Shown: positions 13,861 through 63,288 of the stretch, piece by piece | How positions within the stretch are numbered: the stretch's first letter is position 1 | How the letters are laid out: every line of letters begins with the position of its first letter | Assembly (NCBI GenBank): GCA_964435065.1 | Contig: CAYSXS010000001.1 | Span: 20,538 to 84,537 of the forward strand | From: an uncultured Gammaproteobacteria bacterium | GTDB taxonomy: Bacteria; Patescibacteriota; Patescibacteriia; UBA2196 | DNA: 64,000 bases | Reading direction: 5' to 3' | The notes under the pieces: model-generated | Database searches by the model: none | Told to the model about the DNA's origin: nothing | What the model saw: only the letters and a program-made list of their open reading frames with translations | Program-made: the position numbers and the translations under genes

Positions 13861-15678
13861 ATGTTAAATTGGATTAATAAAAATTATAAACTCATTTTAA
13901 TCTTAATAGTTTTAATAACTCTCTTGCTTAAAATCTTGCCTTTTGAAGTTCGTTCCTGGACAATGGATGCAGACAGCCAGATTGTTAAAGAGGCTCTTCA
14001 AATAGGAGAGTCAGTAACAAGTGGGGATTGGGAATTTTTAAAAGAACCAGTCCTGTTTCCTTTTATTGGCCCATATATCTATTTGTTTTTTTATGGTTTA
14101 TTTTTTTTAATAGGAAAATTAATTGGATTGTTTTCAAGTAGTACAGAGTTTGTAGATTATATATATTTTCATATTCAGAGTCTCTATTGGTGGAGTAGGA
14201 TTTTAATTGCAGTTTTTGGAACATTATTGATTCCGTTAGTCTTTTCTATCACACGCAGAATAATTCAAAAGATTGATCAACAAAAAGCGATTGTGTTATC
14301 TCTTTTTGCATCTAGTTTGGTGGCGTTGAATTTAATTTTAAATATTTTCTCTCAACAACCACGTCCACATGTTCTTGTGGCTTTTTTTATTCTTTTAACT
14401 TTCTATTTTTATCTCAGATTTTTGGATTATAAAAAAATTATAGATTATTTTTTATTAAGCTTATCTTGTGGATTAGCTATTGGTGTTTTACAAAACGGTA
14501 TATTTGCAGTGATCTTTTTTGTTTTAGCAAGTTATTATTTATTTAAAGATACTTATCTAAAGACAAATAAGGTTTTTGCTAATTTTTCTTGGTTAAAGTT
14601 TTTATTAGCTGGATTAATTATTTTAATAATTTTTGTCATAAGTTATCCATATGCAATTTTGAATTTTTCTTCTGTGTTAGAAGCACAAGGAAAGTTTGAG
14701 TCTGTAAATGGGTTTGATTTTACTTTGAGTAGTGGATCTCAAACATTCTCTGGTATAAATGGAAAGGGGATTAATATTTTGATACGTGGTTTATTGTTTT
14801 ATCACCAAGTATTAAGTTTTATTTTTTTATTAACTTTTTTATTGTATATATTTTCGAAATTTAGAAAAAAACAGTTGTATAACAAGATTAAGAATGTTGT
14901 TTTTGATAGAAGTTTAGTTGGTTTATATTTATTCACCATACTATATATTTTAATTCTAATTATATATGATGGAGCACGTATTAGGTTTATGAGTCCATTA
15001 ACTCCTTTTTTGTGTGTTATTGGAGCAGTATTTTTATTAAAATACATTATGCAAGCCAAAACATCGGTGAAAAGAGTTATTTTAGGGTTGATAATGGTTT
15101 TGATGTTATTTGAGTTTGTCCAAGTATTGCGTTTTGTACATATTTTATCACAACCATATACACGCGATGAGTCTGTTGAATGGATCCAAAAAAATATTCC
15201 TAAGGATGAATTAATTTTAATTCAAAGCCGTGGACCAATTTTAATACCAAATCGAAAGAGTTTAGAATTACAAGAAAGTATTAATCCAGAATCTTTAACA
15301 ACTAAGGATAATTTTTTATTAGAATTACCTTTAGATAAATATCCGGCGGATAATAACTATATTCTACGTTTAGGATTGGTTGGTAGTGAATTCCAAACAG
15401 AAGAAGAGTTAGAATCCTTGTTACTAGAATTAAAACCTGATTATTTCGTCTTGTTTTACACCACCCCTAAACCAGAAGATTTTATTGATGATTTTAAAGA
15501 ATTTAGATTAGCTGAGAAGTATGGGGAAAGTATAAAAAAATTTACACCGTTTAAAAACGAAGATAAGAAACAAAGAATGATGTTTACTTGGGCTTTTGAA
15601 AATCCAATTGTTGATTTATGGAATTTTAAACAATTAGGTCCCATTATTGATGTTTATGAATTAAAATGGGACAATTAA
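13861..15678 (+). CDS. GT-C fold membrane glycosyltransferase (ArnT/PMT-like, GT39/GT83 type) with a C-terminal soluble domain
   Basis: About 12 TM helices. The first-loop motif MDADSQIVKEALQIGESVTSGDWEFLKEP matches the ArnT/PMT 'DE..GDW' signature. Confidence 0.55.
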   Translation: MLNWINKNYKLILILIVLITLLLKILPFEVRSWTMDADSQIVKEALQIGESVTSGDWEFLKEPVLFPFIGPYIYLFFYGLFFLIGKLIGLFSSSTEFVDYIYFHIQSLYWWSRILIAVFGTLLIPLVFSITRRIIQKIDQQKAIVLSLFASSLVALNLILNIFSQQPRPHVLVAFFILLTFYFYLRFLDYKKIIDYFLLSLSCGLAIGVLQNGIFAVIFFVLASYYLFKDTYLKTNKVFANFSWLKFLLAGLIILIIFVISYPYAILNFSSVLEAQGKFESVNGFDFTLSSGSQTFSGINGKGINILIRGLLFYHQVLSFIFLLTFLLYIFSKFRKKQLYNKIKNVVFDRSLVGLYLFTILYILILIIYDGARIRFMSPLTPFLCVIGAVFLLKYIMQAKTSVKRVILGLIMVLMLFEFVQVLRFVHILSQPYTRDESVEWIQKNIPKDELILIQSRGPILIPNRKSLELQESINPESLTTKDNFLLELPLDKYPADNNYILRLGLVGSEFQTEEELESLLLELKPDYFVLFYTTPKPEDFIDDFKEFRLAEKYGESIKKFTPFKNEDKKQRMMFTWAFENPIVDLWNFKQLGPIIDVYELKWDN

Positions 15679-15681
15679 AGT

Positions 15682-18118: not shown

Positions 18119-19028
18119 GAGAATTAATGAAATTTATCATGATTGGGAAGCAAAATATTATTTAGAACGGCATCCTGAGATTTTTAAACAAGAAAGAAAT
18201 AACTGGCAAAAGTTTGCTAGTAAGTTTTTTACAAGTGAAAGAGCTAAAAGAATTTTAGATGTGGGTTGTGGTACAGGATTTGTTCCTCAGGTTATTGGAA
18301 GATATCTAACAAAAGATGATGAATTTTTTTGTAGTGATATTTCTTCTGATATGCTTGAAACTGCTAAAGATAATTTATCTAAGAATGGTTATATAAATAA
18401 ATTTTATTTTTTAAAGGGTAGTATTGAAGAATTAAATTTTGAACCAGAAAGTTTAGATATTGTTATTATAAATTCAGTTCTACATCATTTACCAGATATA
18501 GAAATATTTTTTAAAGAATCAAATAGGATTTTAAAACCTGGTGGTAAGTTAATTATATTTCATGAACCTAATAAAAAGTTTTTTCAACATAGTTTTTTAA
18601 GAAATAACTTTTTATTATTACAATATATTAAAAACACAGTTTTTAAGTTTAGAAAAAACTTAAGAGGACGGGTTTCAGATAAAAAAGAAAAAGAAGATAT
18701 TTTTGACTACATAAATAAAATACTTAAACAAGAAGAGTTAATTAGTAAAGATCTAGATAAAACAGAAATAAAGCAATTTGTTGATTATGGATCACCTACA
18801 GCATCTGGTAAAATAGATAAAGATAGAGGATTTGATATAAATGAGATCCAACAGCAATATTTAACTAATTTTAGTATTTTAGAGTTTACAACATACAATT
18901 ATTTGTGTAAGATTAATCATCGTTCAAATTTAATATTAACCCTTTATAACTACTTATTAAGCAGGTTTTGGCCTAAATCAGGGAGTAGTTGGGGAGCTAT
19001 TTTAGAAAAAAATGATACAACAAACTAA
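18033..19028 (+). CDS. Class I SAM-dependent methyltransferase. The true start is probably the ATG at 18096.
   Basis: ILDVGCGTGFV (motif I), LDIVIINSVLHHL. The track start at 18033 overlaps the upstream gene by 85 nt, whereas the internal ATG at 18096 would overlap by only 23 nt. Confidence 0.7.
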   Translation: MVEQQLKNLIGILLSQDILKFMNQQKLVKRINEIYHDWEAKYYLERHPEIFKQERNNWQKFASKFFTSERAKRILDVGCGTGFVPQVIGRYLTKDDEFFCSDISSDMLETAKDNLSKNGYINKFYFLKGSIEELNFEPESLDIVIINSVLHHLPDIEIFFKESNRILKPGGKLIIFHEPNKKFFQHSFLRNNFLLLQYIKNTVFKFRKNLRGRVSDKKEKEDIFDYINKILKQEELISKDLDKTEIKQFVDYGSPTASGKIDKDRGFDINEIQQQYLTNFSILEFTTYNYLCKINHRSNLILTLYNYLLSRFWPKSGSSWGAILEKNDTTN

Positions 19029-20337
19029 AAATCTATTTAAAATCAACTTTGTTAAAGATGTAGCAACTCTTCAGGTTGGTAAAATTGTATCAATGATATT
19101 GAGTGTGGCTGCTTCAATAGTTTTTGCGCGTGTTTTAAAAATAGAAGGATATGGAATTTATGGGTTGATTTTTTCTTTTGCAGGTATCTTAGGTATTTTA
19201 ATGAGTTGGGGGTCCATACATGCCACAGTAACACTATTATCAAAAGCATATGCTCAAAAAGATAAAATTGAAGTAAAAAATGTTTTATCTTATTTCGTAG
19301 GTTTAAATTTGATTAAGATCTGTACTTTAGGGATAATTTTTTATATATTAGCGCCATGGCTTAGTCAATTATTTTATCATAATATTCAAGTAGGTTTGTT
19401 GGTTAGAGTTATATTACTTGCTAATTATATAGAGATAGTTTTTTCCATGTTCACTGTTGTTTTGCAGGTTAGTCGTCGTATTAAAAAATTAACTTTAATT
19501 GAGACTTTTAAAAAGTTTATGATAAGTATCTTGCCGGCAGGGTTTGTACTTATTGGTTTAGGTCTTTCGGGTTTAGTTCTGGGACATTTTTTAGTAGCAG
19601 TTATCTTTTTATTAATTTCTTTTGGGATTTATTCTATTTATGGTCCACGCGATGCCTTATTGCCAAGTTTTAGAGATATTTTTAAAAACATTTCATTAAA
19701 AATAATTGCTAAGTATTTTAGGTTTGGCTTTGCGGTAGCTATAAATAAAAATCTGGGTAGTTTAATAGCGCATTTACCAATATTTTTACTTGGTTTTTTT
19801 GCTAGCTTAACAGATATTGGTTATTACAAGGTGGCAATGGCATATATTGTTTTGCCGAATATGTTTTTAGGACCTGTAAGTAGATTACTGAATGTACAAT
19901 TACCAAAGTCAATTAATTATAGTAATTCTATTTTTAAACAACATCTTATAAAAACCTCTTTATATTCAGGGTTTACTATGTTGGTAACATCGATTCCGTT
20001 GGTTTTATTATCTTCTTTTTTGATTTCTTTTTTTTATGGAGCAGAATATATGGGAGCAAGTAAATTGGTTTATTATTTAATATCACTAACTATCACATCA
20101 GGGTTTGCTGTTGGGTTTAGTCCGTTTTTCAGAACTGTAAGAAAAATGAAAGTAGCAATAATAATGTCGTTTTGTCAGTTTGCTTTAATTTTATTATCTG
20201 CGATTTTGGCTATATATACATTTAATGTTGATCCATTGATGGCTATAGTAGTGGCTTTAACAGCGGTTAGTTTTTTATTTTTTATTATTAATTGGTTATA
20301 CATTTTAAAATATTTCAAAAAAATTAAATTTACATAA
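19012..20337 (+). CDS. Wzx-like oligosaccharide flippase (MOP/polysaccharide biosynthesis protein family)
   Basis: 441 aa with about 12 TM helices. The N-terminal VGKIVSMILSVAASIVFARVL pattern is typical of Wzx/RfbX. Confidence 0.6.
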   Translation: MIQQTKNLFKINFVKDVATLQVGKIVSMILSVAASIVFARVLKIEGYGIYGLIFSFAGILGILMSWGSIHATVTLLSKAYAQKDKIEVKNVLSYFVGLNLIKICTLGIIFYILAPWLSQLFYHNIQVGLLVRVILLANYIEIVFSMFTVVLQVSRRIKKLTLIETFKKFMISILPAGFVLIGLGLSGLVLGHFLVAVIFLLISFGIYSIYGPRDALLPSFRDIFKNISLKIIAKYFRFGFAVAINKNLGSLIAHLPIFLLGFFASLTDIGYYKVAMAYIVLPNMFLGPVSRLLNVQLPKSINYSNSIFKQHLIKTSLYSGFTMLVTSIPLVLLSSFLISFFYGAEYMGASKLVYYLISLTITSGFAVGFSPFFRTVRKMKVAIIMSFCQFALILLSAILAIYTFNVDPLMAIVVALTAVSFLFFIINWLYILKYFKKIKFT

Positions 20338-27237: not shown

Positions 27238-27238
27238 T

Positions 27239-33799: not shown

Positions 33800-33800
33800 G

Positions 33801-44378: not shown

Positions 44379-44700
44379 ACATATGTTAATTCAAATCCTT
44401 TTATCAATATTTATACTTTTTGCAATTATTAGATTAATTGTGAAATTTAAAAAAACTGATGCTAAAGCATCAGGTTCATTATGGTTATTGTTTTGGATAA
44501 TAACTGTTGTAGCTGTTTGGGTACCAGATTTTTTAACTCAAGTAGCTAATCTGGTTGGTATTGGTCGTGGTGCAGATTTAGTTTTGTATGTTAGTGTTGT
44601 CGTTGTTTTTTATTTAATTTTCAAAATATATGTTAGATTAGAAAAGATAGAAAGGAATATTACTAAAGTAGTAAGAAAAGATAGTCTTAAAGAAGATTAG
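44371..44700 (+). CDS. Small membrane protein (DUF2304-like), a probable membrane partner of the upstream GT2
   Basis: 109 aa with 3 TM helices. It overlaps the upstream GT2 by 8 nt. Confidence 0.45.
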   Translation: MYKHMLIQILLSIFILFAIIRLIVKFKKTDAKASGSLWLLFWIITVVAVWVPDFLTQVANLVGIGRGADLVLYVSVVVVFYLIFKIYVRLEKIERNITKVVRKDSLKED

Positions 44701-48749: not shown

Positions 48750-49852
48750 AAATAGCTCATGTTGTTTGTAGATTTCCACCATATAAAGGTGGAATGGGAA
48801 ATGTAGCATATGAGCAAGCTAAAGAGCTTGCTAAATTAGGGTATGAAGTTACAGTGTTTACACCAAATTATTCTCATAAAGAACAGGATTTTAATTTTAA
48901 TGTAATATATTTAAAATCTTTAATTAAATTTGGTAATGCTGCTTTTTTACCTCAGTTGATATATAGGTTGAGGAAATTTGATGTTGTACAATTACACCAT
49001 CCTTTTTTTGGTGCTACAGAAATTGTTTGGGTAGCAAAAAAGTTAGGATTAATAAAAAAGTTGGTAGTTTTTTGTCATATGGAATTTATTCCTAAAAATT
49101 TGTTTTTTAAACTTTTTATGACACCAGATAAAATTATTTTAAAATCTTTATTAAACTCATCAAGTAAAATAGTTGTTAGTAGCTTAGATTATGTTCGTCA
49201 ATTATCAATTAAGAAGTACTTTGAAAAGAATAAAGAAAAATTTATTGAGATTCCTTTTGGTTCACAATTTAATTTACCTGAGTTGAAAGAAAAAACAAGA
49301 GATAAGAATATTCTTTTTGTTGGTGCTTTAGATAAAGCACATAATTTTAAAGGTGTAGATATATTATTAAAATCCTTTAAAGAGGTTTTGTCTAAAGTAA
49401 ATGATATCAAATTAAATATTGTTGGGGGTGGAGATATGATGGAAGAATATATTAAACAAGCCAAAGGTTTAGGGATTATTGATAATGTTAATTTTCCTGG
49501 GCGTGTGTCAGATGAAAAATTGAAAGAATATTATGCAAATTGTGATTTTTTTGTATTACCTTCCGTGGATTCTGGTGAAGCTTTTGGGTTAGTTCTTGTC
49601 GAAGCGATGAGTTTTGCAAAATCAGTTATTGCTTCTAACTTGCCAGGCGTACGTACAGTTTGTAGAGACAATCAGAATGGGTTTTTAATTGAACCAGGAA
49701 ATATGCAAGATTTAACTGAAAAAATGTTAAAATTAATACAGGATAATGATTTATCTAAAGAAATGGGTAAAAAGAGTAGACAAATAGTAGAAAATGAATA
49801 TACTTGGCCTGTTCATGTAAAGAAATTAGAAGAAGTTTATGAGAGTATATAG
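48746..49852 (+). CDS. Glycosyltransferase family 4
   Basis: FVLPSVDSGEAFGLVLVEAMSFAKSVIASNLPGVRTV. It overlaps the recombinase stop by 4 nt (ATGA). Confidence 0.8.
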   Translation: MKIAHVVCRFPPYKGGMGNVAYEQAKELAKLGYEVTVFTPNYSHKEQDFNFNVIYLKSLIKFGNAAFLPQLIYRLRKFDVVQLHHPFFGATEIVWVAKKLGLIKKLVVFCHMEFIPKNLFFKLFMTPDKIILKSLLNSSSKIVVSSLDYVRQLSIKKYFEKNKEKFIEIPFGSQFNLPELKEKTRDKNILFVGALDKAHNFKGVDILLKSFKEVLSKVNDIKLNIVGGGDMMEEYIKQAKGLGIIDNVNFPGRVSDEKLKEYYANCDFFVLPSVDSGEAFGLVLVEAMSFAKSVIASNLPGVRTVCRDNQNGFLIEPGNMQDLTEKMLKLIQDNDLSKEMGKKSRQIVENEYTWPVHVKKLEEVYESI

Positions 49853-51026
49853 GATAGTATTAATATTTTTAATATTTGTATTACTGCCAGTAAGTTTGGC
49901 TAGTGCTTTTGTTAATGAAGAAAGTAATTTAGATGAATATGTAAAACCTTTCTATAACCGGTATTCAAAACATTTTGATCAATATGGATTAAAATATATG
50001 AGTCCTAGTTATGGAATAGAAGATTTTAAAGAACCTGTTACAGCAAGAGAATGGATGTCTTTAGCTTCTTACTATAAATACACTAATAACCAGGACATTA
50101 TTCATGATTCAATAATTAAAGCATATAGGGAAATTAGTAGAAGACCTTCGTATACTCAATCTTTTAATGATGCAGAAGCTTTTTTATTAATTATTAGATT
50201 GATGGAGAATAATAAAGAAGTATTAACATATATTGAAAAAGAAAGAGTTCTTGATTTAATGTCAGCATATTTAGAACAAGGCATAAAAGCTAAAGATACA
50301 GAAAATAGGGCAATTATTGCATCAGCTCATTGGCAATACATTACAAATTATCTTTATTCTAATAACAGAATTATAAATAAAATATATTATGATGGTTTAA
50401 TAAAAGAAAAAATAGATAAAGCTATACAGGAAAGTATAAATAAAGATGGTTGGTACTTTGAAAATAATATGAAATCGTTTACACCTCATTACCACACTAT
50501 TTCTGCTTTCATGTTATTAATCTATGGAGATTTAACTCAACAGAATGAATATCTTGATTTATCTAAAAAAATGTATTTTAACATTAAGAAAATTACTTTT
50601 AAAAATGGGATGGTTGAAGCAAAGCTAGGGCATAGACCTTTAGGTTTAGGAGCTCAGTTCTATTTAACTCAATCGTTATTAGGTCAATATTTTAATGATG
50701 ATGACTACAAGGTATATTTATTCTATGCAAGTGGGAATAGATTTTTTTCAGATAAACAGTATTCTAATAGATTAGAATTTCATTCAACTATTGAAAATAC
50801 AGAACCAATCTATCATGATGATTATGCATTTAGTGATATAGCTGAGTTGGGTCTTGTTATTACTAAATTAAAAGATATTAATTTAGAACATAAATACTAT
50901 TTAACCAATCCAGTTCAAAATTTAAGAGATAATACTTTTAGGATATATAACTATGGAAAATTAATATTTTTTAATGGAAAAAGAAATATTTTAGGTAGTT
51001 ATGGTAACTGGTCACATATTTTATGA
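49839..51026 (+). CDS. Secreted hypothetical protein, largely alpha-helical, possibly glycan-binding or glycan-processing
   Basis: Signal peptide MRVYRIVLIFLIFVLLPVSLASAF. No confident family assignment. Confidence 0.4.
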   Translation: MRVYRIVLIFLIFVLLPVSLASAFVNEESNLDEYVKPFYNRYSKHFDQYGLKYMSPSYGIEDFKEPVTAREWMSLASYYKYTNNQDIIHDSIIKAYREISRRPSYTQSFNDAEAFLLIIRLMENNKEVLTYIEKERVLDLMSAYLEQGIKAKDTENRAIIASAHWQYITNYLYSNNRIINKIYYDGLIKEKIDKAIQESINKDGWYFENNMKSFTPHYHTISAFMLLIYGDLTQQNEYLDLSKKMYFNIKKITFKNGMVEAKLGHRPLGLGAQFYLTQSLLGQYFNDDDYKVYLFYASGNRFFSDKQYSNRLEFHSTIENTEPIYHDDYAFSDIAELGLVITKLKDINLEHKYYLTNPVQNLRDNTFRIYNYGKLIFFNGKRNILGSYGNWSHIL

Positions 51027-51724
51027 AAACATATATAGTCATCCCAACATATAATGAGAAAGAGAATATTGAAGAATTAGTTAAAGAAATAGACAATCTT
51101 AAGATTGAAGATTTAAATATTTTAATTGTTGATGATAATTCACCTGATGGAACAGGTGAAATTGCTGATAGATTGAAAAATAGTTATCCAGTAGAAGTTT
51201 TACATAGACAAGATAAGCAAGGATTAGGATCAGCGTATAGAGCAGGGTTTAAATATTGTTTAGAACATAATGCAGAATATATATTTGAAATGGATGCAGA
51301 TTTTTCTCATAAACCAAAAGATGTTCCTCGTATGTTACAAGCAGCACAAGTAGGTGCAGATTTAGTTATTGGTTCAAGAAAGATTAAAGGAGGTAAAATC
51401 ATTGGCTGGAATGCTTGGCGTCATTTTTGTTCAGATGGAGCGATGTTTGCTTCTAGAATAATGTTAGGTTTAAAAACTAAAGATGTGACAGCTGGTTTTC
51501 GTTGTTTTAAAGCAGAAACGCTGAAAACTATTAAATATTCAGAAATTAAAAGTAATGGATATGCTTTTCAGGAAGAAATGATATATAGAATAGAAAAAGC
51601 TGGTTTAAAGGTAGTTGAAGTTCCAGTAGTATTTCTTGATCGTGAAAAAGGCAAGTCTAAGCTTAATAAAAAGGACATTATTGATTTTTTTGTTACTATT
51701 ATTAGATTAAAGTTTAAAAAATGA
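51023..51724 (+). CDS. Polyprenol-monophosphate mannose/hexose synthase (DPM1/Ppm1-like GT2)
   Basis: YIVIPTYNEKENIEELVKEI...ILIVDDNSPDGTGEIADRL...EMDADFSHKPKD is a close match to DPM1-type signatures. Confidence 0.75.
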   Translation: MKTYIVIPTYNEKENIEELVKEIDNLKIEDLNILIVDDNSPDGTGEIADRLKNSYPVEVLHRQDKQGLGSAYRAGFKYCLEHNAEYIFEMDADFSHKPKDVPRMLQAAQVGADLVIGSRKIKGGKIIGWNAWRHFCSDGAMFASRIMLGLKTKDVTAGFRCFKAETLKTIKYSEIKSNGYAFQEEMIYRIEKAGLKVVEVPVVFLDREKGKSKLNKKDIIDFFVTIIRLKFKK

Positions 51725-52317
51725 AATATTTTAAATACATATTAATATTTTTTCTTTTTCTGGGTTGTTTTAATTTTGTTTATGCTCAAAATGAGATTGA
51801 ACAAACGTCAGCATATGTTTTGTATGTGATTGATGGAGATACTGTAAGAGTAAGTATTGATGGTAAGGAACATAGAGTTAGATTACTTGGAATTGACGCA
51901 CCAGAGATTGTTAATGTAGAAGAAAACAAAGAAGGTGAGTGTTTTTCAGATGAAGCTACAAAAAAGTTAAAAGAATTGATTTTAAACAAAGAAATTGTGC
52001 TGGTTAATGATTCTTTAAGTGATGATAAGGATAAATATAATAGGTTGTTAAGATATATATATTTAGATGACTTAGATGTTAATGCAGAACTACTAAAAGA
52101 TGGGTACGCTAAGTCTTTTTTGTTTTTTCCTTTTGATAAAGCGCAAGAATATGGAATTTTAGATAATTTCGCTAAATTACAAAATTCAGGGTTATATGAT
52201 CCAGATGCCTGTTCTAAAGTTGTTGATGATACAGAAACAGATACGCCATATCTTTTATTTGGAATAGCAGGACTAGCTATTCTCTTAATTATTATTTTTT
52301 TAAAGAAAAATGATTAA
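51721..52317 (+). CDS. Thermonuclease (SNase/micrococcal-nuclease-like) with an N-terminal signal and a C-terminal TM anchor
   Basis: YVLYVIDGDTVRVSIDGKEHRVRLLGIDAPEI is the SNase signature. The C-terminal hydrophobic segment is LLFGIAGLAILLIIIFL. Confidence 0.75.
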   Translation: MKYFKYILIFFLFLGCFNFVYAQNEIEQTSAYVLYVIDGDTVRVSIDGKEHRVRLLGIDAPEIVNVEENKEGECFSDEATKKLKELILNKEIVLVNDSLSDDKDKYNRLLRYIYLDDLDVNAELLKDGYAKSFLFFPFDKAQEYGILDNFAKLQNSGLYDPDACSKVVDDTETDTPYLLFGIAGLAILLIIIFLKKND

Positions 52318-53653
52318 AAAAAACTTATACAAAATTGTTTTATTTCTCTTCTTCATATTTTTAATCTTTTTCCGCTTACACAATGCGGATGTTTTTAATT
52401 CATATTGGGGTTATGATGGAGGAGGACATTTAGAATATATACAGGAAATATATGAACAAGGAAGTTTGCCTAACATGGAAGAAAACTATTTAGCTTGGCA
52501 TGAGCCAGCTTTTTATTTCTCCTATTCTGTAATTGGTAAAATATTTAATTTAATTTATCCAAGTGATTTTACTGTTGTTATTAAGTTTTTACAGATATTT
52601 TCTGCAATGCTTGGTGTTTTAATGATTTGGTTAATTTACAAAATTGCGCAGCAATTTAGTAAGAATAAGAATGTTTGGTTAGCAGCAGTATTTTCTTCAG
52701 GATTTTTATCAGTAATTATAGAAACAACTAACTATTTAACTAATGAATTGTTATTAGCTTTTTTAATTATTCTCCTTTTTTACTATTTCATTAGGTTTTC
52801 AAAAAAAGGTTGGAATTTAAAAAGGGTTTTAGGTATTTCTGTTTTGTGTGGAATAGCTTTATTAGTTAAACTATCAGCTTTAATTTTTATCTTTTCCATA
52901 TTAATTTGGTTTTTATATAGATGTATATATACAGGTAAGATTAAATGGTTAGGATATCTCGTGGCTTTTGTTGTTGTTGCTTCTTTAATTTATTCTCCTT
53001 GGGCGATATATAAGCAAAAGAACATTGGTAGTTTATGGTCAATTAATATATATGAAGATAATTTATCTGAAAGCGGGGAACTTAACTCAGATTTCTTCTA
53101 TAGACTAAATCCTCAGATATTTAATAATCCATTTTGGATGACAAGTAGTAATTCTTTCTGCGCAGTAATTTTTGCAGATACATTTTCAGACTATTACTCA
53201 ATATCTAATAACCTTGATAAAAATTTATCATTGCCAGATAATCAAAAAATATGGGTAGATAGTGGTAATTTTGTAACTCATTTGAAGTATAGGTTGTCTA
53301 TTCTTCTACTTTATTCCTCTGTATTCTTCATTCTAATCTTCTTAGGAGGAGTAATTGGCTTATGTTGGCAATTAATTAAGAAAAAACTAAAACCAGGTAT
53401 TAACCTATTTATCTTAATATTCATAATTGGTTCTTTTCTAGCATTGATGTATAATGTTTTTAGTTTTCCATTCTTGGAACGGGGGACATTAAAGGCCAGT
53501 TTTGTATTAAGTGTCTGGCCAATCCTTATGATTATCTCATGGTCGTGGTTAGGACAAGTTTTAAAGAAGTTTAAATTATCTTTTTTATGGATCCCTATTT
53601 GGTTTTTAATTTTAATTTGGTGTAGTTTATCTGTAGCCATAAATTGGATTTAA
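52310..53653 (+). CDS. GT-C fold membrane glycosyltransferase (PMT/ArnT-like)
   Basis: Multi-TM protein. The first loop YWGYDGGGHLEYIQEIYEQGSLPN resembles the PMT/ArnT acidic-loop motif. Confidence 0.5.
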   Translation: MIKKNLYKIVLFLFFIFLIFFRLHNADVFNSYWGYDGGGHLEYIQEIYEQGSLPNMEENYLAWHEPAFYFSYSVIGKIFNLIYPSDFTVVIKFLQIFSAMLGVLMIWLIYKIAQQFSKNKNVWLAAVFSSGFLSVIIETTNYLTNELLLAFLIILLFYYFIRFSKKGWNLKRVLGISVLCGIALLVKLSALIFIFSILIWFLYRCIYTGKIKWLGYLVAFVVVASLIYSPWAIYKQKNIGSLWSINIYEDNLSESGELNSDFFYRLNPQIFNNPFWMTSSNSFCAVIFADTFSDYYSISNNLDKNLSLPDNQKIWVDSGNFVTHLKYRLSILLLYSSVFFILIFLGGVIGLCWQLIKKKLKPGINLFILIFIIGSFLALMYNVFSFPFLERGTLKASFVLSVWPILMIISWSWLGQVLKKFKLSFLWIPIWFLILIWCSLSVAINWI

Positions 53654-53660: not shown

Positions 53661-54806
53661 ATGAAGATTTGTTTAATAAACAATTTATACAAACCTTTTA
53701 ATAAAGGTGGAGCAGAAGCAGTTGTAGAAGATACTGCTAAATGTTTAGTTTCTTTAAAACACGAAGTAATTTTAATTACTTTAGGTGAAGAGGATAAAAT
53801 AGAAGAATTGGATGGAGTTAAGGTATACAGAATTAAACCTTGGAATATATTTTCTTTTTTAGATATGGATAATAAGAATGGGGTGGTTAGATTTATCTGG
53901 TGGTTTTTTAATGTTTTTAATCTATCTTCAAGAAAGAAAATTAAGAATATTTTAAAAAAAGAAAAACCAGATCTTGTGCATATACACAATATGGTTGGTA
54001 TGAGTTTTTTAATTTCACGATTGATTAGTAGATTAAAGATAAAATCAGTATTAACTATTCATGACATTCAATTAGTTTATCCTTCAGGGCAATTAATTTA
54101 TGGGCAAGAGAATACATTTATTAACACCTTCTTTTTAAGAAAATGGTATGAAAAACTTGTTAAGTTTTTAATTTCATCTCCTGATGTAGTTATTTCCCCA
54201 TCAAAATGGTTATTGGATTTTTATGCAAAAAAAGGATTCTTTAAGGATTCATATAAAAAAGTTTTACCAAATTCAGTTCCTCAAATATCTAGTCAAAGAG
54301 TCGAAAGTGAAAAATTAAGATTTTTGTATGTCGGACAAGTAGGAGAATACAAAGGAATATTTACTTTGTTAAATGTATTTAAAGATTTAGATTATGAATT
54401 GCATGTTGTTGGTGATGGTAAAGATTTAGAAAAAGCTAAAAAGTTTGAAAGTAATAATATATTATTCCATGGAAGATTAGATAAAAAAGAATTAGAAAAT
54501 ATATATTCTAATTCAGATATTTTAATCTTTCCAAGTTTAACTTATGAAAATTGTCCAATGGCTATTATGTTGGCTTTTGGTTTTGGTATTCCAGTAATTG
54601 GCTCACGTATTGGTGGTGTACCTGAATTAATCGAAGAAAACATAACAGGTTGGTTGTTTGAACCAGGTAATGAGCAAGAATTAGGTAAATTAGTTAGTAT
54701 ATGCAAAGATAAGGTTAAAGGAATGAGAGATAACTGTTTAAATAGAGCAAAAGAGCATACTATTGAAAAATATTTAAAAAAATTAGAAGAAATATATATA
54801 ACTTGA
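53661..54806 (+). CDS. Glycosyltransferase family 4
   Basis: NKGGAEAVVEDTAKCL at the N-terminus, and LIFPSLTYENCPMAIMLAFGFGIPVIGSRIGGVPELI at the C-terminus. Confidence 0.75.
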   Translation: MKICLINNLYKPFNKGGAEAVVEDTAKCLVSLKHEVILITLGEEDKIEELDGVKVYRIKPWNIFSFLDMDNKNGVVRFIWWFFNVFNLSSRKKIKNILKKEKPDLVHIHNMVGMSFLISRLISRLKIKSVLTIHDIQLVYPSGQLIYGQENTFINTFFLRKWYEKLVKFLISSPDVVISPSKWLLDFYAKKGFFKDSYKKVLPNSVPQISSQRVESEKLRFLYVGQVGEYKGIFTLLNVFKDLDYELHVVGDGKDLEKAKKFESNNILFHGRLDKKELENIYSNSDILIFPSLTYENCPMAIMLAFGFGIPVIGSRIGGVPELIEENITGWLFEPGNEQELGKLVSICKDKVKGMRDNCLNRAKEHTIEKYLKKLEEIYIT

Positions 54807-56740: not shown

Positions 56741-56764
56741 ACATTTGTTGTTCATATAATTTTG

Positions 56765-56837: not shown

Positions 56838-57216
56838 GTCCGGGTAGGTGAGTGATTACCTGTATTTCTTAGGAAATATGGGAGGAAAGTCCGAACACCA
56901 ACCTATTCAATTAGGAATAATAGTTCTGAAATAGAACCAGGTATAAGACTTACGAGAAAAGTAGTTCACGATCGTGTTACTTTTAGTGGACAAAGTCAAA
57001 ACCTCGAGCTAGTGCCACAGAGACTATACTAACCCTTATGGGTGAAATGTGAAAAGTGAACTGATGTTTTTTTAAAGCTACAGTTCTCATCCCTTGGTGA
57101 CAAGGAGATGTGGTAAACCTTATTTTGGTGCAAGTCATAATTGACGCGTAGATAGATGATCACAATTACTGCTTTGCAGTAATACAGAATTCGGCTTATG
57201 ACCCTGCCTGGACAAC
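56838..57216 (+). ncRNA. rnpB: RNase P RNA (bacterial type, ~379 nt)
   Basis: Conserved P4 strands GGAGGAAAGTCCGAACACC (5') and ACAGAATTCGGCTTATG (3', corresponding to ACAGAACCCGGCUUA). P1 closes through GTCCGGGTAGG pairing with CCTGCCTGGAC. The region is GC-richer than its flanks and contains no ORF. Confidence 0.8.
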
Positions 57217-57240: not shown

Positions 57241-58632
57241 ATGAAAAAGAATGATTTGATCTTTTCTGCAGTCTTGGTTCCTATAGATTATATTATGATT
57301 ATATTAGCCGGCGTTGCCGCCTATTTTTTACGTTATGAAAGATGGGTGCAAGAAATACGTCCGGTTATTTTTAATTTAGATTTTAAGTCATACCTTTCAT
57401 ATATCTGGTGGGTTGCTCTGGTTTGGTTAGTTATTTTTGTAATTGCTGGGTTGTATCAAACAAAAGGTGCACGAAAGGTTTTTGATGAAATTGGTAAGGT
57501 ATTTTTAGCTTGTTCAACAGGTATGCTGGTTGTTATTGTTGCAGCTTTTTTCTCACGTGAACTATTTGATTCTCGTTTTATCCTATTGGCTGGTTGGATT
57601 TTAGCTTTTCTTTTTGTTTCTGTCGGTAGATTGGTTGTAAATGGTGTTCAACGCTTGTTATATATCAAGAAAATTGGTGTACATAAAGTAGTTTTGATTG
57701 GAGCAGATAATTCAACTGAAGATATTGCTAAGGAGATATATAAGAGTAGAACATTGGGTTATACAATTATTGGTCGTTTCCAAAATTTACAAAATGGTAA
57801 TTTGGATAAATTAACAGAATTACATAAATCTAAATTTATTGATGAGATTATTCAAGGGGATACTAATCTAAGTAGACAAGAAAATTTAGCTTTACTCGAT
57901 TTTGCTGATGAACACCATATTATTTTTAAATACGCAGCTGACTTTTTTGATACACAAAGTAAAAATGTTGACTTATACACAATGGCTGGGATACCGGTTG
58001 TAGAAGTTAGAAGAACAAAACTAGATGGTTGGGGAAAGATATTGAAAAGATTTTTTGATATTATCATATCTTCCTTGCTTTTAATCATATTTTCACCGTT
58101 TTTCTTAATATTAGCTTTAATTGTTAAGGTAGACTCTAGAGGGCCTGTTTTTTACGGTTCTAAGCGTGTAGGAGCTAAAGGAAAGAAGATCAGGATATAT
58201 AAGTTTAGATCTATGATTAGGAACGCAGAACGTCTTAAAAAGAAGCTTTTATCTAAAAATGAACGTCTTGACGGCCCTTTATTTAAGATGGAAGATGATC
58301 CTCGTGTAACAAGAGTAGGTAAGTTTATGCGTAAATGGAGTATTGATGAATTACCCCAATTCTGGAATGTTCTAAAAGGAGATATGAGTTTAGTTGGTCC
58401 TCGTCCTCATGAACCAAATGAAGTTGCTAAATATGAAAAACACCATAAAAAGTTATTAAATATTAAACCTGGTGTAACAGGTATGGCTCAAGTTTCTGGT
58501 AGATCAGATTTAGAATTTGAAGAAGAAGTTAAGTTAGATACTTTCTATATCGAGAACTGGACTCCATGGCTTGATTTAATAATTTTAATAAAAACACCTT
58601 TTATTGTTTTATTGAAAAAAGGTGCGAAGTAA
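57241..58632 (+). CDS. Polyprenyl-phosphate glycosyl-1-phosphate transferase (WbaP/WcaJ/CpsE-like), second copy
   Basis: [57 protein letters not shown]...[24 protein letters not shown]. Confidence 0.85.
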
Positions 58633-60154: not shown

Positions 60155-61243
60155 ATGAAAATTGCTTTAATCCATGACATGTTAGTACAAGAAGGTGGGC
60201 AGGAAAGAGTTTTGCGTGCTTTGCAAGAGCTTTTTTCAGATGCTCCTACTTTTGTTTTGATTTATGATAGGGATAATAAGGAGAAGTATTATAAAGAAAA
60301 GGATATTAGAGCTACTTTTTTACAAAAAATGCCTGGAATTGAAAAGAAGTTTCAATGGTATTTACCTTTAATGTCTTCTGCTATTGAATCTCATGATTTA
60401 CGTGGTTTTGATTTAATATTATCTTCTAGCTCTTCTTTTGCTAAAGGAGTAATTACACAACCAGGTACACAACATGTTTGCTATTGTCATACACCTACTC
60501 GTTATCTTTGGTCAGATTCACAAGGATATGTAGAAGATTTACCTTATCCTAATATTGTTAAAAAAGTTTTACCTCTATATCTATCTCATCTACGTAATTG
60601 GGATTGGGCTGCTTCACAAAGAATAGATGGTTTTTTAGCTAATTCCAAAACAGTTAAAGATAGAATTAAGAGATATTATAATAAAGAGGCTCAGGTTATA
60701 TATCCACCAGTTGATACAGATAAATTCTATATATCTAACTATTTAGGTAACTATTATCTAATAGGTGGTAGATTGGTGCCATATAAGAGGTATGATTTGG
60801 CTATTAAAGCTTTTAATAAACTTGATATGCCTTTAAAGGTTTTTGGTATAGGCCCAGAGTTAGAAAGATTAAAAAGCATAGCTAGACCAAATATTGAATT
60901 TTTAGGTGAAGTCAATGAACAACAAAAAGCAGAATTATATTCTAAATCCTTAGCTTTTATACATCCTCAAGAAGAAGATTTTGGTATTACAGCTGTAGAA
61001 GCAATGGCTTCTGGCCGTCCTGTAGTTGCTTACAAAGCAGGGGGTGCTTTAGAAACAATTGTTGAAGATCATACAGGGCAGTTTATTAAAGATCAGACAT
61101 GGGAAGATTTAGCCAATACAATTATTCATTTTAAACCAGAGAAATATAAATCAGATGAAATTAAAAATCATGCTAGGAAATTTTCCAAAGCACGATTTAT
61201 GGAAGAAGTTAGGGGTTTTGTAAATAGTATAAAAGAAAATTAA
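60155..61243 (+). CDS. Glycosyltransferase family 4
   Basis: MKIALIHDMLVQEGGQERV... at the N-terminus, and FIHPQEEDFGITAVEAMASGRPVVAYKAGGALETI at the C-terminus. Confidence 0.8.
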   Translation: MKIALIHDMLVQEGGQERVLRALQELFSDAPTFVLIYDRDNKEKYYKEKDIRATFLQKMPGIEKKFQWYLPLMSSAIESHDLRGFDLILSSSSSFAKGVITQPGTQHVCYCHTPTRYLWSDSQGYVEDLPYPNIVKKVLPLYLSHLRNWDWAASQRIDGFLANSKTVKDRIKRYYNKEAQVIYPPVDTDKFYISNYLGNYYLIGGRLVPYKRYDLAIKAFNKLDMPLKVFGIGPELERLKSIARPNIEFLGEVNEQQKAELYSKSLAFIHPQEEDFGITAVEAMASGRPVVAYKAGGALETIVEDHTGQFIKDQTWEDLANTIIHFKPEKYKSDEIKNHARKFSKARFMEEVRGFVNSIKEN

Positions 61244-63288
61244 TATTCAAAAATCCATATTTTATTATTTCCAATTTCAAAACTTTTTATTGCATTAGCT
61301 TGTGCCTCTGGCACAAGCTTTTTAAAATTTGTCCAATAATCATTAATAACTAAATATACTTTATCTGTGTTAGTTAAATCTTTAACTTGTTGGATATATT
61401 CATCTTTTATTCCTGTATATGATATATTTAAATATATTTTATACAATTCAGACGATGTGGGTATTGGGTAATAGAAAAGTTGTTGTTCATTATTTGTAAA
61501 ATATTTTTTAAAACCAAATTCTTGTAAAGCAGCTGCGGAAGTAGATTGATTTGTTAGAACAACAAAATTATCTGTATCAGACATTTCTTGAATTTTTTGT
61601 ACAGCTAATATATCTGCTTGTGAAACAGAGTATCCTTTATTTTTTTCAATCACATCATATGTTGGGTAGGCTAGATATACACAACTAGTTAAAACAAAAG
61701 CAGTGATAATGATTAAAAGCTTTTTGTTTTTAATTGATATTTTAAGTATGTGGTAAATAGCGTAGATAACAAAAGGTAATACAAAGAAATATGAAAAATG
61801 AATTAAACGTTCAGGAAATATATTTTGCTCATAATATATTACGGCATTGAATTTTAATAAAGATAGTAAGTATGAGTTGATTATTAATATTAAAGAAACA
61901 AGCAAAAATATCCAAGTTTCCTTGTATTTTTTAAACATCATCCAAAATCCTGTTCCAGTTAGGATTAATATTAAGATAGGGAATAGAGACTTTAGGAAAT
62001 ATATAGAGTGTAAGAAAGAATGAAAAGGTAGATAAGTAAAGTCAAAAGTGGATATTAATCTTTGTTTTAAATTAGATAAGTCTAAAGAAATATCAAAACC
62101 TGGTAATATGTAAGATAAAGCATAGAATGCAATAGGAATACAAACAAGGAATATTAGGACAGAAAGTATTGTTAGAGTTCTTTTTTTACGTACAGAAAGT
62201 AACCAAACCAACATTAATGCAGGTAATCCAGCTAAAGGGTGGATACAAGTAATAGCTATGGCTAAAAGCCATAGATGGTTTAACTTTAATATGTTACTTC
62301 TAAAATATATTAAAGTTAAGAATATATATATGATTAAAAAGATATTGGCTAAATGTTGAGGAACAGTAAAGAAGGTTGTAAAAATAATTAAGAAAGGAAG
62401 AACAAAAGAAACAATTTGAGAAAGTCTTCTTTCTAGATTTAGTTTTAATAAAGTAAAATATGTTAGTGTAGGAATAATTAAAGAAGATAAAACAGGAACT
62501 AAAAGTTTATCTATTAAACTAACACTAACTTGAAAAATTTTACTTAATATTACAACCAAAGAATATTGTCCTATGTAGTATGGATTTTTAGGAAGAATAT
62601 ATCCATTTTCTAAAATTATCTTTTCAGTAGCACGATGGATAAAAGGATCAAAACCATATCCTATAGAGTAAATTATTAATGCAATGGCAGAGGTTAAAAA
62701 AGTATGGATTGTAATTAAAAATATATTTAACTTTTCTGAAAAAGTGAATATCTTATACAACAATAAACATGTTGAGATAAAATATATGATAAAGAAATAT
62801 GAAGGCACAACCTGCCAAGGAGAAACAATAGCTTCGGTTGTATTGTGAGAAAACAAGATGTACACCAAGGAAATTATTAAACCTAAATATATACCATCTA
62901 AAAACCATATATATTTCTTTTTATATTCTTTAACTTCAATTTCTAATTTAGATGTATCTAAATTAGAAATATTTTTTCTATACAACAAAAAGATGGAAAG
63001 TAATGGGATTAATAATATTAAAGAAATAGTCCAGCTAAATAACCCAATTGTGTAATATATTATTGTTCCACAGATAGTAACTAGTATTAATAGAAAGATA
63101 AATCCTAAAATCCAAGAAAAACTTTTATCTTTTTCTTTAAATAGGTTTTTACCTAAAAAGTATGAAAATGTAGATAAGTATAATATTCCGAAAATAACAC
63201 CCAAAACAACACTTTTTATTAAAAAGATGTTTAGAATGGTTATTAAGAATATAATACCTAAAATTGGTAAAAACTTGATTTTTTGCAT
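61240..63288 (-). CDS. Large GT-C fold membrane glycosyltransferase-like protein (ArnT/PMT/YfhO-like) with a C-terminal extracytoplasmic domain
   Basis: 682 aa with more than 14 TM helices. The loop motif FDPFIHRATEKIILENGYILPKNPYYIGQ matches the ArnT-type 'DE..R..E......G' acidic loop. Confidence 0.45.
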   Translation of the reverse strand: MQKIKFLPILGIIFLITILNIFLIKSVVLGVIFGILYLSTFSYFLGKNLFKEKDKSFSWILGFIFLLILVTICGTIIYYTIGLFSWTISLILLIPLLSIFLLYRKNISNLDTSKLEIEVKEYKKKYIWFLDGIYLGLIISLVYILFSHNTTEAIVSPWQVVPSYFFIIYFISTCLLLYKIFTFSEKLNIFLITIHTFLTSAIALIIYSIGYGFDPFIHRATEKIILENGYILPKNPYYIGQYSLVVILSKIFQVSVSLIDKLLVPVLSSLIIPTLTYFTLLKLNLERRLSQIVSFVLPFLIIFTTFFTVPQHLANIFLIIYIFLTLIYFRSNILKLNHLWLLAIAITCIHPLAGLPALMLVWLLSVRKKRTLTILSVLIFLVCIPIAFYALSYILPGFDISLDLSNLKQRLISTFDFTYLPFHSFLHSIYFLKSLFPILILILTGTGFWMMFKKYKETWIFLLVSLILIINSYLLSLLKFNAVIYYEQNIFPERLIHFSYFFVLPFVIYAIYHILKISIKNKKLLIIITAFVLTSCVYLAYPTYDVIEKNKGYSVSQADILAVQKIQEMSDTDNFVVLTNQSTSAAALQEFGFKKYFTNNEQQLFYYPIPTSSELYKIYLNISYTGIKDEYIQQVKDLTNTDKVYLVINDYWTNFKKLVPEAQANAIKSFEIGNNKIWIFEY

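Follow-up and report, generated by a model that had tools for sequence, protein, structure and literature searches.

The closest characterised systems, GacI/J/K/L, PpgS/Rv3632/Rv3779 and ArnC/D/T, decorate glycopolymers or lipids. GacI, GacJ, GacK and GacL of Streptococcus pyogenes add GlcNAc side chains to the Group A carbohydrate, and inactivation of GacL leads to accumulation of polyprenyl-P-HexNAc. The Gac proteins work in the way proposed here, with a polyprenyl-P-sugar being made, flipped and transferred by a GT-C (bioRxiv 10.1101/180810). PpgS (Rv3631), Rv3632 and Rv3779 of Mycobacterium tuberculosis, which place GalN on arabinogalactan, are likewise a characterised precedent (PMC3485146), and GacJ and Rv3632 are activators of the adjacent GT2 (bioRxiv 10.1101/180810). 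Further points of comparison are ArnC/ArnD/ArnE-F/ArnT, which modify lipid A with aminoarabinose, GtrA/GtrB/GtrC, and the Ppm1/Pmt system of actinobacterial protein O-mannosylation with its eukaryotic counterpart DPM1/PMT.

Contents of the surface-glycan island

The window considered here is a 64-kb stretch of the chromosome of an uncultured member of the Patescibacteria (CPR), and it is occupied by a large surface-glycan island. It contains five very divergent membrane GT-C proteins and a sixth, together with three GT2 enzymes of the type that attaches sugars to polyprenyl phosphate. As a surface-decoration system the island is of a known kind, and among its GT-Cs is one widespread family without any database model. 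A first-pass annotation had read into it a heavy investment in extracytoplasmic polyprenyl-phosphate-linked glycosylation, and this is supported by the GT-C folds, the GT2 matches, the accessory genes and the recurrent pairing of GT-C with GT2: GT-C genes next to polyprenyl-P-type GT2 genes recur in more than 100 related loci. All nine genes named there are open reading frames lying exactly where they had been placed. The reported mixing with a Wzx/Wzy-type pathway was also found, in the form of a Wzx, a Wzy_C protein and two phosphoglycosyl transferases (PGTs), as was the GtrA-like protein:

3259..3696, + strand: GtrA-family small membrane protein, candidate polyprenyl-P-sugar flippase (PF04138, 111.7 bits; cut-off 26.1)
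19012..20337, + strand: Wzx-type flippase (PF01943, 64.5 bits; PF13440, 49.8 bits)
35673..37091, - strand: initiating polyprenyl glycosylphosphotransferase (PF02397, 218.5 bits; TIGR03013 and TIGR03025 over cut-offs)
37778..40048, + strand: Wzy_C/O-antigen-ligase-like membrane protein fused to TPR repeats (PF04932, 73 bits; TPR families)
57241..58632, + strand: second initiating polyprenyl glycosylphosphotransferase (PF02397, 232.2 bits; TIGR03025, 414 bits, over cut-off)

A GacJ-like gene (44371-44700) and the sixth GT-C (from 63754, at the window edge) had been omitted from the first-pass annotation.

The membrane proteins of the GT-C superfamily

Genes are referred to below by their first coordinate. 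The five membrane proteins originally picked out do belong to the GT-C superfamily, on unequal evidence: two pass the gathering threshold of the Pfam family PMT_2 (PF13231, 26.1 bits), as does the sixth gene, one scores below it and two are placed by fold.

13861..15678, + strand: membrane glycosyltransferase with a GT-C fold, from a divergent and very rare family, 605 aa
15682..17028, + strand: GT-C (PMT_2; ArnT/PMT-like), 4 bp 3' of 13861 (PF13231, 55.5 bits; cut-off 26.1)
29091..30659, + strand: divergent GT-C (PMT_2-related), last in an operon with methyltransferase, GT4, radical-SAM and GT2 genes (PMT_2, 23.5 bits, below cut-off)
52310..53653, + strand: GT-C (PMT_2 and PMT), in an operon shared with 51023 (PF13231, 39.4 bits; PF02366, 28.6 bits; both over cut-offs)
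61240..63288, - strand: GT-C fold protein of a Patescibacteria-wide family without a database model, 682 aa
63754..64000, + strand: sixth GT-C (PMT_2, 553 aa), the first 82 codons in the window and the rest beyond its edge (PF13231, 39.5 bits)

For the sixth gene, the identity of the translations was confirmed against the longer sequence of the same contig. The Pfam search gave no PMT_2 match for 13861 or 61240, and these were assigned to GT-C at the level of fold from AF2 models; that of 13861, built from a seven-sequence alignment, is of moderate confidence (pLDDT 68), and its best predicted fold matches are the Pmt4 and Pmt2 structures. Hydropathy indicated about 10–14 hydrophobic helices in each of the five proteins, and a non-hydrophobic C-terminal domain in 13861, 29091 and 61240; DSSP of the two AF2 models was consistent with this helix picture. 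PMT_2 was matched by 20 of 53 members of the 29091 family (best 1.5e-12), and hhalign against other GT-Cs gave probabilities of 89.7% and 88.6%. None of the five was listed by the YfhO Pfam or ArnT NCBIfam models (Pfam at E<=0.01, and at E<=10 for two; NCBIfam at E<=0.01), PF02366 (PMT) had no match in the four other than 52310, and phmmer retrieved no solved PMT for 15682, 52310 or 29091.

To call these proteins five paralogues was too strong, as sequence comparison links one pair alone, 15682 and 52310; the five are not recent paralogues. Of the N-terminal acidic motif they were said to share, the individual strings are present (MDADSQ..GDW in 13861, SDDARGYDE in 15682, GFDPFIHRATE in 61240). 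They do not form a common alignable motif. That of 61240 lies at residue 214, behind about seven predicted TM helices, and the 29091 family has a Gly right after TM1 in at least 90% of members, with no conserved acid there. Acidic residues do occur in the first-loop region of 15682 and 52310, the DDARGYDE string of 15682 coming immediately after TM1. Among family members, D38 of 13861 is invariant in five sequences and lies in a predicted outside loop; in the 29091 family the invariant acid is found elsewhere, at D258, with H366 also strictly conserved, both in predicted outside loops. In the 61240 family D214 and H218 are each found in 40 of 40 members and E222 in 39 of 40, and the positive-inside rule predicts this loop to be extracytoplasmic. 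The two fold-assigned families differ in abundance: that of 13861 is extremely rare (6 known proteins), while that of 61240 has hundreds of Patescibacteria members, annotated as hypothetical throughout.

Polyprenyl-phosphate sugar synthases and their candidate modules

Three GT2 genes had been described as carrying DPM1/Ppm1 signatures, and all three do belong to the clade of polyprenyl-phosphate sugar synthases (DPMS, PpgS/GacI, ArnC/GtrB). The best solved or curated relatives of 51023, 43719 and 33801 are polyprenyl-P sugar synthases only, and the three score 68–76 bits against one another, versus 8–38 bits against the three other GT2s of the window. No GT2 reaches an NCBIfam cut-off, all being far below the equivalog-level identity that would give sugar specificity. 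Each may serve a module of its own.

A first module would consist of the epimerase 42714, the PpgS/GacI-like 43719 and the GacJ-like 44371, supplying the GT-C 61240. In a sample of 80 GTDB species genomes, genes of the 61240 family lie in convergent orientation with a cassette that comprises an epimerase, a PpgS-like GT2, DUF2304, a GT2 and two GT4s, represented here by:

42714..43715, + strand: SDR nucleotide-sugar epimerase/dehydratase, cassette gene 1 (PF01370, 143.7 bits; 27/80 loci of the 61240 family)
43719..44378, + strand: PpgS/GacI-like polyprenyl-phosphate HexNAc-type synthase, a soluble GT2 (best match NCBIfam PpgS, 167.8 bits; cut-off 370)
44371..44700, + strand: DUF2304 small three-TM protein, GacJ/Rv3632 homologue (PF10066, 87.6 bits; cut-off 25.5)
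44704..45735, + strand: GT2 of the rhamnosyltransferase-like group (PF00535, 72.7 bits; TIGR01556, 87.8 bits, below cut-off; 21/80 loci)
48746..49852, + strand: GT4 glycosyltransferase (PF00534, 147.8 bits; 42/80 loci)
53661..54806, + strand: GT4 glycosyltransferase (PF00534, 95.6 bits; 51/80 loci)

The PpgS-like GT2 was present in 28 of the 80 loci, and DUF2304 in 30, against 2 of 80 control loci. In this window 43719 and 61240 are 17 kb apart, with inserted genes between them, and their pairing is proposed from synteny in relatives: 60 loci have enough flank, and 26 of these, less than half, carry a homologue of 43719 at a distance of 2.7–5.3 kb from the 61240-type GT-C. Among structures, 43719 matched DPMS (5mlz, 3.9e-14) and GtrB (4.6e-9). 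The last 8 nt of 43719, its stop included, also belong to 44371; the product of 44371 is about 110 aa, with three TM helices and a PF10066 match, and is encoded directly downstream of a GT2, as are GacJ and Rv3632.

This candidate module resembles the Gac system in having a GT2 that would make HexNAc-P-undecaprenol, an adjacent DUF2304 three-TM partner (44371-44700), a Wzx-type flippase and a GT-C beyond the reach of ordinary HMMs that would act outside the cell, and in being set within a polysaccharide locus with rhamnosyltransferase-like GTs; 61240 is likened to GacL by description rather than by sequence. Unlike the Gac system, it belongs to a CPR host and includes an additional SDR epimerase/dehydratase and two GT4s. 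The mycobacterial system is similar in that PpgS is the best curated match of 43719, although far under the equivalog cut-off, that the Rv3632/GacJ-family membrane partner is encoded immediately downstream, and that the GT-C uses polyprenyl-P-HexNAc, as proposed for 61240. It differs in its acceptor, arabinogalactan not being expected in a Patescibacteria host, and in that a conserved GYGFDPFIHRATEK loop is particular to the 61240 family. The module would be a HexNAc-P-polyprenol side-chain system, either GacI/J/L- or PpgS/Rv3632/Rv3779-like.

In a second module, the DPMS-like 51023 would supply the PMT-like GT-C 52310; the two share one operon, in which neighbouring genes overlap.

51023..51724, + strand: DPM1/Ppm1-type polyprenyl-phosphate mannose-synthase-like GT2, soluble (PDB 5mlz, Pyrococcus DPMS, 7.9e-43 over residues 1-229)

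The best NCBIfam matches of 51023, which contains the string MDADFSH, are AglJ, PpgS and Dol-P-hexose transferase. Membrane anchoring would be provided for 33801 by C-terminal TM helices and for 43719 by the adjacent DUF2304/GacJ-like partner; 51023 has neither TM helices of its own nor a small membrane partner within the window.

The third module would link the ArnC/GtrB-like 33801, the deacetylase 33044, the B12-radical-SAM enzyme 31609 and the flippase-like 30668 to the GT-C 29091:

30668..31612, - strand: MprF-flippase-like membrane protein, LPG_synthase_TM (PF03706, 155.3 bits; TIGR00374, 103.4 bits, cut-off 43.2)
31609..33063, - strand: B12-binding radical SAM enzyme (PF02310, PF04055; best NCBIfam HpnJ, 231 bits, below cut-off 577)
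33044..33799, - strand: polysaccharide deacetylase family protein (PF01522, 67.1 bits, and DUF3473; TIGR03006, 131.8 bits, below cut-off)
33801..34703, - strand: ArnC/GtrB-type polyprenyl-phosphate glycosyltransferase, GT2, with C-terminal hydrophobic TM helices (PF00535, 115.7 bits)

Against the PDB, 33801 matched ArnC (9hwj, 1e-20), GtrB (5ekp, 7e-15) and DPMS (2.9e-14); its best NCBIfam matches are PgfS, AglJ and ArnC (ArnC 76, cut-off 529). Across 80 metagenome loci of the 29091 family, spanning 23–78% identity and several gene orders, a B12-radical-SAM gene was found in 63, flippase-like genes and ArnC-like GT2s in 32 each, and a polyprenyl-P-type GT2 lay within 8 kb of the GT-C in 34 of the 52 loci with enough flank. 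As in ArnC and GtrB, the GT2 has C-terminal TM helices; after it, in the place that ArnD has next to ArnC, comes a gene of the polysaccharide deacetylase family, and a flippase-like membrane protein, a GT-C and a GtrA homologue (3259) complete the likeness to Arn and Gtr. Unlike the lipid A system, the locus has no ArnA or ArnB genes, its host, a monoderm, lacks lipid A, the flippase-like protein is of the MprF/LPG_synthase_TM family rather than ArnE/F, and B12-radical-SAM genes come as an extra component that is strongly conserved.

No dedicated synthase for 13861, 15682 or 63754 lies within the window, and their donors would presumably be shared with the other modules; homologues of the 13861 family also adjoin polyprenyl-P-type GT2s.

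Proposed pathway and alternatives

Gene identities, folds and conserved gene neighbourhoods are observations, and it is quite likely that they reflect several independent modules of the Gac/Gtr/Arn type, each producing and flipping a polyprenyl-P-sugar from which a single sugar is passed on outside the cell. A cytoplasmic GT2 would use a nucleotide sugar to charge polyprenyl monophosphate with one sugar; the lipid-linked sugar would be flipped, with GtrA, Wzx and the MprF-flippase-like protein as candidates; and a GT-C would then, on the outer side of the membrane, attach the sugar to a glycan, a lipid or a protein. An acceptor glycan would be assembled by the many GT4 and GT2 enzymes on polyprenyl-PP primers from the two PGTs. 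The donor sugar and acceptor of each module, and the flippase that serves it, are what we infer.

The first-pass annotation had pointed to protein O-mannosylation of the Ppm1/Pmt type, in which 51023 would make polyprenyl-P-mannose and 52310, perhaps with other GT-Cs, would O-mannosylate secreted proteins, an S-layer or pilins. The match of 51023 to DPMS across its whole catalytic domain, its operon with 52310 and the PMT and PMT_2 scores of the latter are all in keeping with this. However, 52310 has no PMT_4TMC (PF16192) match at E<=0.01 and carries YDGGGH in loop 1 in place of the DE motif, solved PMTs were not retrieved by phmmer as described above, and those bacterial systems with GacJ-like or ArnC-like partners that have been characterised act on polysaccharides or lipids; on balance such O-mannosylation is unlikely. 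A Ppm1 D1-like partner gene is absent as well, a further difference from the Ppm1/Pmt system. A distinctly less probable alternative concerns 61240, which might resemble an oligosaccharyltransferase or ligase and transfer a whole polyprenyl-PP oligosaccharide, made by the neighbouring PGT and GT4s, to a protein or polymer, instead of one sugar taken from polyprenyl-P. GT4 genes accompany its family more constantly than any other neighbour, and in this window the 61240 gene ends about 2.6 kb away from the PGT 57241; in related loci a homologous PGT was found in just 3 of 80. Against this reading, the WWD(x)G motif is in none of the 40 family members, the STT3 Pfam model does not match 61240 even at E<=10, and family synteny is with a GacI/GacJ-type synthase pair for monophosphate-linked sugars.

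It is more doubtful still that the fold is all that some of these proteins share with the sugar transferases, and that they serve as non-catalytic scaffolds or polymerases or are inactive duplicates. The missing conserved acid after TM1 in the 29091 family and the rarity of the 13861 family would fit such a role, but charged residues are conserved in predicted outside loops (D38 in 13861, D214/H218/E222 in 61240, D258 and H366 in 29091), and donor-making GT2s repeatedly adjoin these genes.

Composition of the island and its membrane glycosyltransferases

The window, with a G+C content of about 29% and nearly all of its genes on the plus strand, is a dense glycan island. Its family content, obtained by scanning every ORF of at least 150 aa against Pfam and NCBIfam, comprises 13 GT4, six GT2 and five candidate GT-C genes, together with two polyprenyl glycosylphosphotransferases (PGTs), one Wzx, GtrA (3259, plus strand; genes are named by their start coordinates), an MprF-flippase-like protein (30668), and TPR repeats fused to a Wzy_C/O-antigen-ligase-like protein. 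The island also encodes five SAM methyltransferases, three radical SAM enzymes, including two of the B12-binding type, a polysaccharide deacetylase (33044) and two SDR epimerase/dehydratases. Homologues of the window proteins are found almost exclusively in metagenome-assembled genomes of Patescibacteria/CPR (Falkowbacteria, Buchananbacteria, Magasanikbacteria, Uhrbacteria, Parcubacteria).

Individual features of the island
24853-26064: radical SAM gene
26149-27237: radical SAM gene
31609-33063: radical SAM gene, B12-binding
44371-44700, plus strand: DUF2304 protein of 109 aa with three TM helices, 87.6 bits, overlapping the stop codon of 43719
63754-64000, plus strand: window part of a sixth GT-C gene of 553 aa, PMT_2 39.5 bits, which continues past the edge (L085:900-2561, minus strand, on the same contig)

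The first-pass annotation had named five GT-C membrane glycosyltransferases (13861, 15682, 29091 and 52310 on the plus strand, 61240 on the minus strand); each gene it named is an ORF at exactly the position assigned, and all of the peptide strings quoted occur in the translations. Membership of GT-C was borne out by Pfam for 15682 (PMT_2, 55.5 bits, above cut-off) and 52310 (PMT_2 at 39.4 bits and PMT at 28.6 bits, both passed), but 29091 remained below the PMT_2 cut-off (23.5 against 26.1 bits), and 13861 and 61240 had no Pfam or NCBIfam match even at E<=10. Assignment to transporter families by HMM search, named at the outset as the refuting outcome, was obtained for none of the five. When 1.84 billion representative proteins were searched exhaustively, 211 relatives of 29091 came to light, and PMT_2 was matched by 20 of 53 aligned members of this family (best 1.5e-12). 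Across roughly the first seven helices, the 29091-family profile could be aligned both to the 13861 family and to 15682 (about 89% probability by hhalign), in a comparison in which probabilities between families ranged overall from 10 to 90%, weak to moderate support. Solved structures were searched with three family profiles (61240, 13861 and 29091) and three single sequences (15682, 52310 and 29091), in neither case with a meaningful match, so that sequence alone cannot place these proteins beside any solved GT-C. Since 13861 and 61240 had neither a Pfam or NCBIfam match nor a solved-structure match by family profile, both were structure-modelled. The 13861 family is extremely rare, with six proteins among 5.8 billion plus two distant PMT_2 relatives by profile search, and because that search deepened the alignment by only these two proteins, the 13861 model did not rise above pLDDT 68.

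The five proteins had been described as paralogues sharing an N-terminal acidic-loop motif, and neither description survived closer comparison. They do not qualify as recent paralogues, as only 15682 and 52310 detected each other in an all-against-all phmmer search (23 bits). Acidic residues do stand shortly after TM1 in four of the five, but there is no common alignable motif: the GYGFDPFIHRATEK motif of 61240 begins only at residue 210, past about seven predicted helices, and the 29091 family has a glycine after TM1 in at least 90% of its members, its invariant charged residues being D258 and H366. D38 is invariant in the 13861 family. In the 61240 family, no member departs from D214 or H218, and 39 of 40 carry E222; the first four or five helices of 61240 form a variable extension missing from many homologues; by the positive-inside rule, the GYGFDPFIHRATEK loop would lie outside the cell. 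An oligosaccharyltransferase (OST) was rejected as the main reading of 61240, given the absence of the WWD motif.

The sixth GT-C gene, missed by the first-pass annotation, starts 466 bp beyond the 61240 start codon and is divergent from it; a 94-aa ORF without matches (63369-63653) lies between the two. Elsewhere, 13861 ends 4 bp upstream of the ordinary PMT_2 GT-C 15682, and one may speculate that this tandem pair acts jointly, by analogy with Pmt1-Pmt2.

Probable donor synthases and conserved neighborhoods

Three GT2 genes (33801 on the minus strand, 43719 and 51023 on the plus strand) had been read as DPM1/Ppm1-type, and their best solved or curated relatives are indeed all polyprenyl-phosphate sugar synthases. 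The protein 51023 matched Pyrococcus DPMS over the whole catalytic domain (7.9e-43); 43719 matched NCBIfam PpgS, a polyprenyl-P-GalNAc synthase, at 167.8 bits, as well as DPMS and GtrB in PDB; and 33801 matched ArnC (1e-20), GtrB and DPMS, and carries C-terminal TM helices as typical of ArnC and GtrB. The three form a subgroup (68-76 bits mutually) set apart from the window's remaining three GT2s. None reached an equivalog cut-off, the level at which a sugar could be assigned. The DUF2304 ORF at 44371, overlooked at first pass, adds a candidate partner of 43719: GacJ (DUF2304) binds and stimulates the GlcNAc-P-undecaprenol synthase GacI (bioRxiv 10.1101/180810), and M. tuberculosis Rv3632, of the DUF2304 family, stimulates PpgS (bioRxiv 10.1101/180810; PMC3485146).

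The 61240 family comprises more than 257 cluster representatives, each annotated as hypothetical; GTDB species genomes contain 542 confirmed loci, and the neighborhoods of 80 of these were examined. Convergent to the 61240-type gene lies a cassette of (S8 peptidase/FG-GAP), SDR epimerase, PpgS/GacI-like GT2, DUF2304, (rhamnosyltransferase-like GT2), GT4 and GT4. The two GT4s were present in 51/80 and 42/80 loci, DUF2304 in 30/80, the PpgS-like GT2 in 28/80 and the epimerase in 27/80; where the flank extended to 5.5 kb or more, the PpgS-like GT2 was 2.7-5.3 kb away in 26/60 loci. As a control, DUF2304 was found in only 2/80 loci of the 29091 family. In many relatives (within loci L009-L082), the series epimerase, GacI-like, GacJ-like, GT2, GT4, GT4 and the convergent GT-C fit into about 8-10 kb.

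A different set of neighbors accompanies the 29091 family, for which 80 metagenome loci (L087-L166; 23-78% identity) were collected, the metagenome scan using a 13-sequence alignment. B12-binding radical SAM genes (63/80), often in two to four copies per locus, MprF-flippase-like genes (32/80) and ArnC/GtrB-like GT2s (32/80) recurred in several orders and orientations; in contrast, B12-radical-SAM genes were seen in only 2/80 loci of the 61240 family. Where at least 4 kb of flank was available (52 loci), a B12-radical-SAM gene was within 4 kb in 43 and a polyprenyl-P-type GT2 within 8 kb in 34. The flippase-like (LPG_synthase_TM) genes directly adjoined a B12-radical-SAM gene in 28 of 32 cases. 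Homologues of the 13861 family also adjoin polyprenyl-P-type GT2s, and in one case a 29091-type GT-C with the same B12-radical-SAM, flippase-like and GT2 set.

Proposed modules and their characterized relatives

The picture that fits best the gene identities, folds and neighborhoods observed here is one of several Gac/Gtr/Arn-type modules, whose donors, acceptors and flippases we infer. In each, a GT2 would charge polyprenyl phosphate with a single sugar, a flippase would carry the lipid-linked sugar across the membrane, and a GT-C would pass it to a surface acceptor; the underlying glycan or glycans would be built on polyprenyl-PP by Wzx/Wzy-type machinery and the many GT4 and GT2 enzymes. 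Proximity and synteny suggest that 43719 with 44371 serves 61240, that 51023 serves 52310, and that 33801, with 33044, 31609 and 30668, serves 29091.

The original observation of these gene families is confirmed, and its interpretation as Ppm1/Pmt- or Gtr-like extracytoplasmic glycosylation is supported in part. The Ppm1/Pmt analogy suits 51023 and 52310, but only loosely, because 52310 has neither a PMT_4TMC domain nor the loop-1 DE motif. In the closest characterized systems that share the accessory genes seen in the window, the decorated acceptor is a polysaccharide or a lipid. Proteins, an S-layer or pili, the targets suggested at first pass, count as candidate acceptors.

The tight link of the 29091 family to B12-radical-SAM and flippase-like genes hints at tailoring of a lipid-linked sugar. 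In such a module, an ArnC-like GT2 would make a polyprenyl-P-linked (amino)sugar, a B12-dependent radical SAM enzyme, sometimes with a deacetylase, would remodel the sugar while still lipid-linked, an MprF-like flippase would move it across the membrane, and the GT-C would transfer it outside. HpnL is a UPF0104/LPG_synthase_TM protein. The module resembles the hopanoid genes as a gene set, with the GT2 corresponding to HpnI, the deacetylase to HpnK, the B12-radical-SAM to HpnJ and the UPF0104-type membrane protein as a further part. In that pathway, hpnI, hpnK and hpnJ convert bacteriohopanetetrol (BHT) to its cyclitol ether (PMC5462960). Hopanoid-like tailoring is a low-probability lead, since the B12-radical-SAM, whose best match is HpnJ, scored 231 bits, far under the cut-off of 577. 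It is rather unlikely that both halves of a joint reading hold, namely that 61240 founds a phylum-wide GT-C family with a GYGFDPFIHRATEK signature, acting as transferase of a GacI/GacJ-type HexNAc-P-polyprenol cassette, and that the 29091 module performs radical-SAM tailoring. If true, radical SAM enzymes would tailor monosaccharide donors that are still lipid-linked, a chemistry that, to our knowledge, nobody has described so far.

Patescibacteria are tiny, mostly uncultured and live attached to other cells; their surface probably mediates attachment, and its chemistry is almost unknown. At this locus, a large share of coding capacity appears to be spent on Gac/Gtr/Arn-style decoration from lipid-linked sugars. 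The type of system is already well known; what is new is the membership, that is, an unannotated phylum-wide GT-C family (61240) with a conserved GacI/GacJ-type cassette, and the tight association of the 29091 family with B12-radical-SAM and flippase-like genes. Literature searches turned up no paper on patescibacterial GT-C enzymes, and the several 'dolichol-phosphate mannosyltransferase' copies of CPR genomes have been remarked on only in passing (PMC4736985, PMC6031116). Two gene sets could now be annotated across thousands of metagenome-assembled genomes: the widespread 'hypothetical' GT-C family with candidate catalytic residues D214, H218 and E222 and its donor-synthase cassette, and the recurrent module of GT-C, ArnC-like GT2, flippase-like and B12-radical-SAM genes. 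Parts of both lend themselves to biochemical tests in E. coli membranes, for which no culture of the organism is needed.

Insertions into the cassette and other features of the island

In the window, the 61240 cassette extends over about 20 kb (42714-63288), broken up by three blocks of extra genes. The inserted material includes OmdA, a tyrosine recombinase, a block of 49839, 51023, SNase and 52310, several unknowns, RNase P RNA, a PGT and a GT4. One block starts with the tyrosine recombinase (47916-48749), after a 1.26-kb mostly non-coding gap and an opposite-strand OmdA-like gene. Between 45.7 and 47.9 kb, beside the integrase, no Rfam family was found, only chance hairpin matches. A G+C-rich 27-nt inverted repeat (47543-47569/47727-47753; 89% complementary, arms 157 nt apart), also without an Rfam match, lies in the AT-rich non-coding gap that precedes the recombinase gene. 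Directly 5' of the cassette is a subtilase (Peptidase_S8) fused to FG-GAP repeats (40466-42682, plus strand), in the same place in 12/80 related loci. The gene that separates the DPMS-like GT2 from GT-C 52310 (51721-52317, plus strand) overlaps both at its start and stop codons and encodes a homologue of staphylococcal nuclease, equipped with a signal peptide and, at the C terminus, a TM anchor; a surface nuclease is not what one would expect in a glycosylation operon.

Seven ORFs had no significant family match (39-812, 10111-10989, 49839-51026, 54840-55541, 55577-55891, 55928-56740 and 59331-60071), and all except 55577-55891 were considered as more GT-Cs and rejected, the ORFs not being polytopic GT-C-like. 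A signal or anchor helix is present in ORF 49839, whose neighbors are a GT4 and the DPMS-like GT2, ORF 55928 has four TM helices, and a homologue of ORF 54840 was detected in L005 and L007, the two closest relatives examined. No tRNAs were found in the window, and shuffled sequence contained promoter-like sites at least as often. The GC skew, strongly positive (+0.2 to +0.3) everywhere else, falls to near 0 across the minus-strand block 30668-37091, a drop that tracks gene orientation. A bacterial RNase P RNA (class A; 56841-57214, plus strand; 107 bits against a gathering score of 100) lies inside the island, just after a strong terminator-like hairpin (56763-56795) and just before the PGT at 57241.
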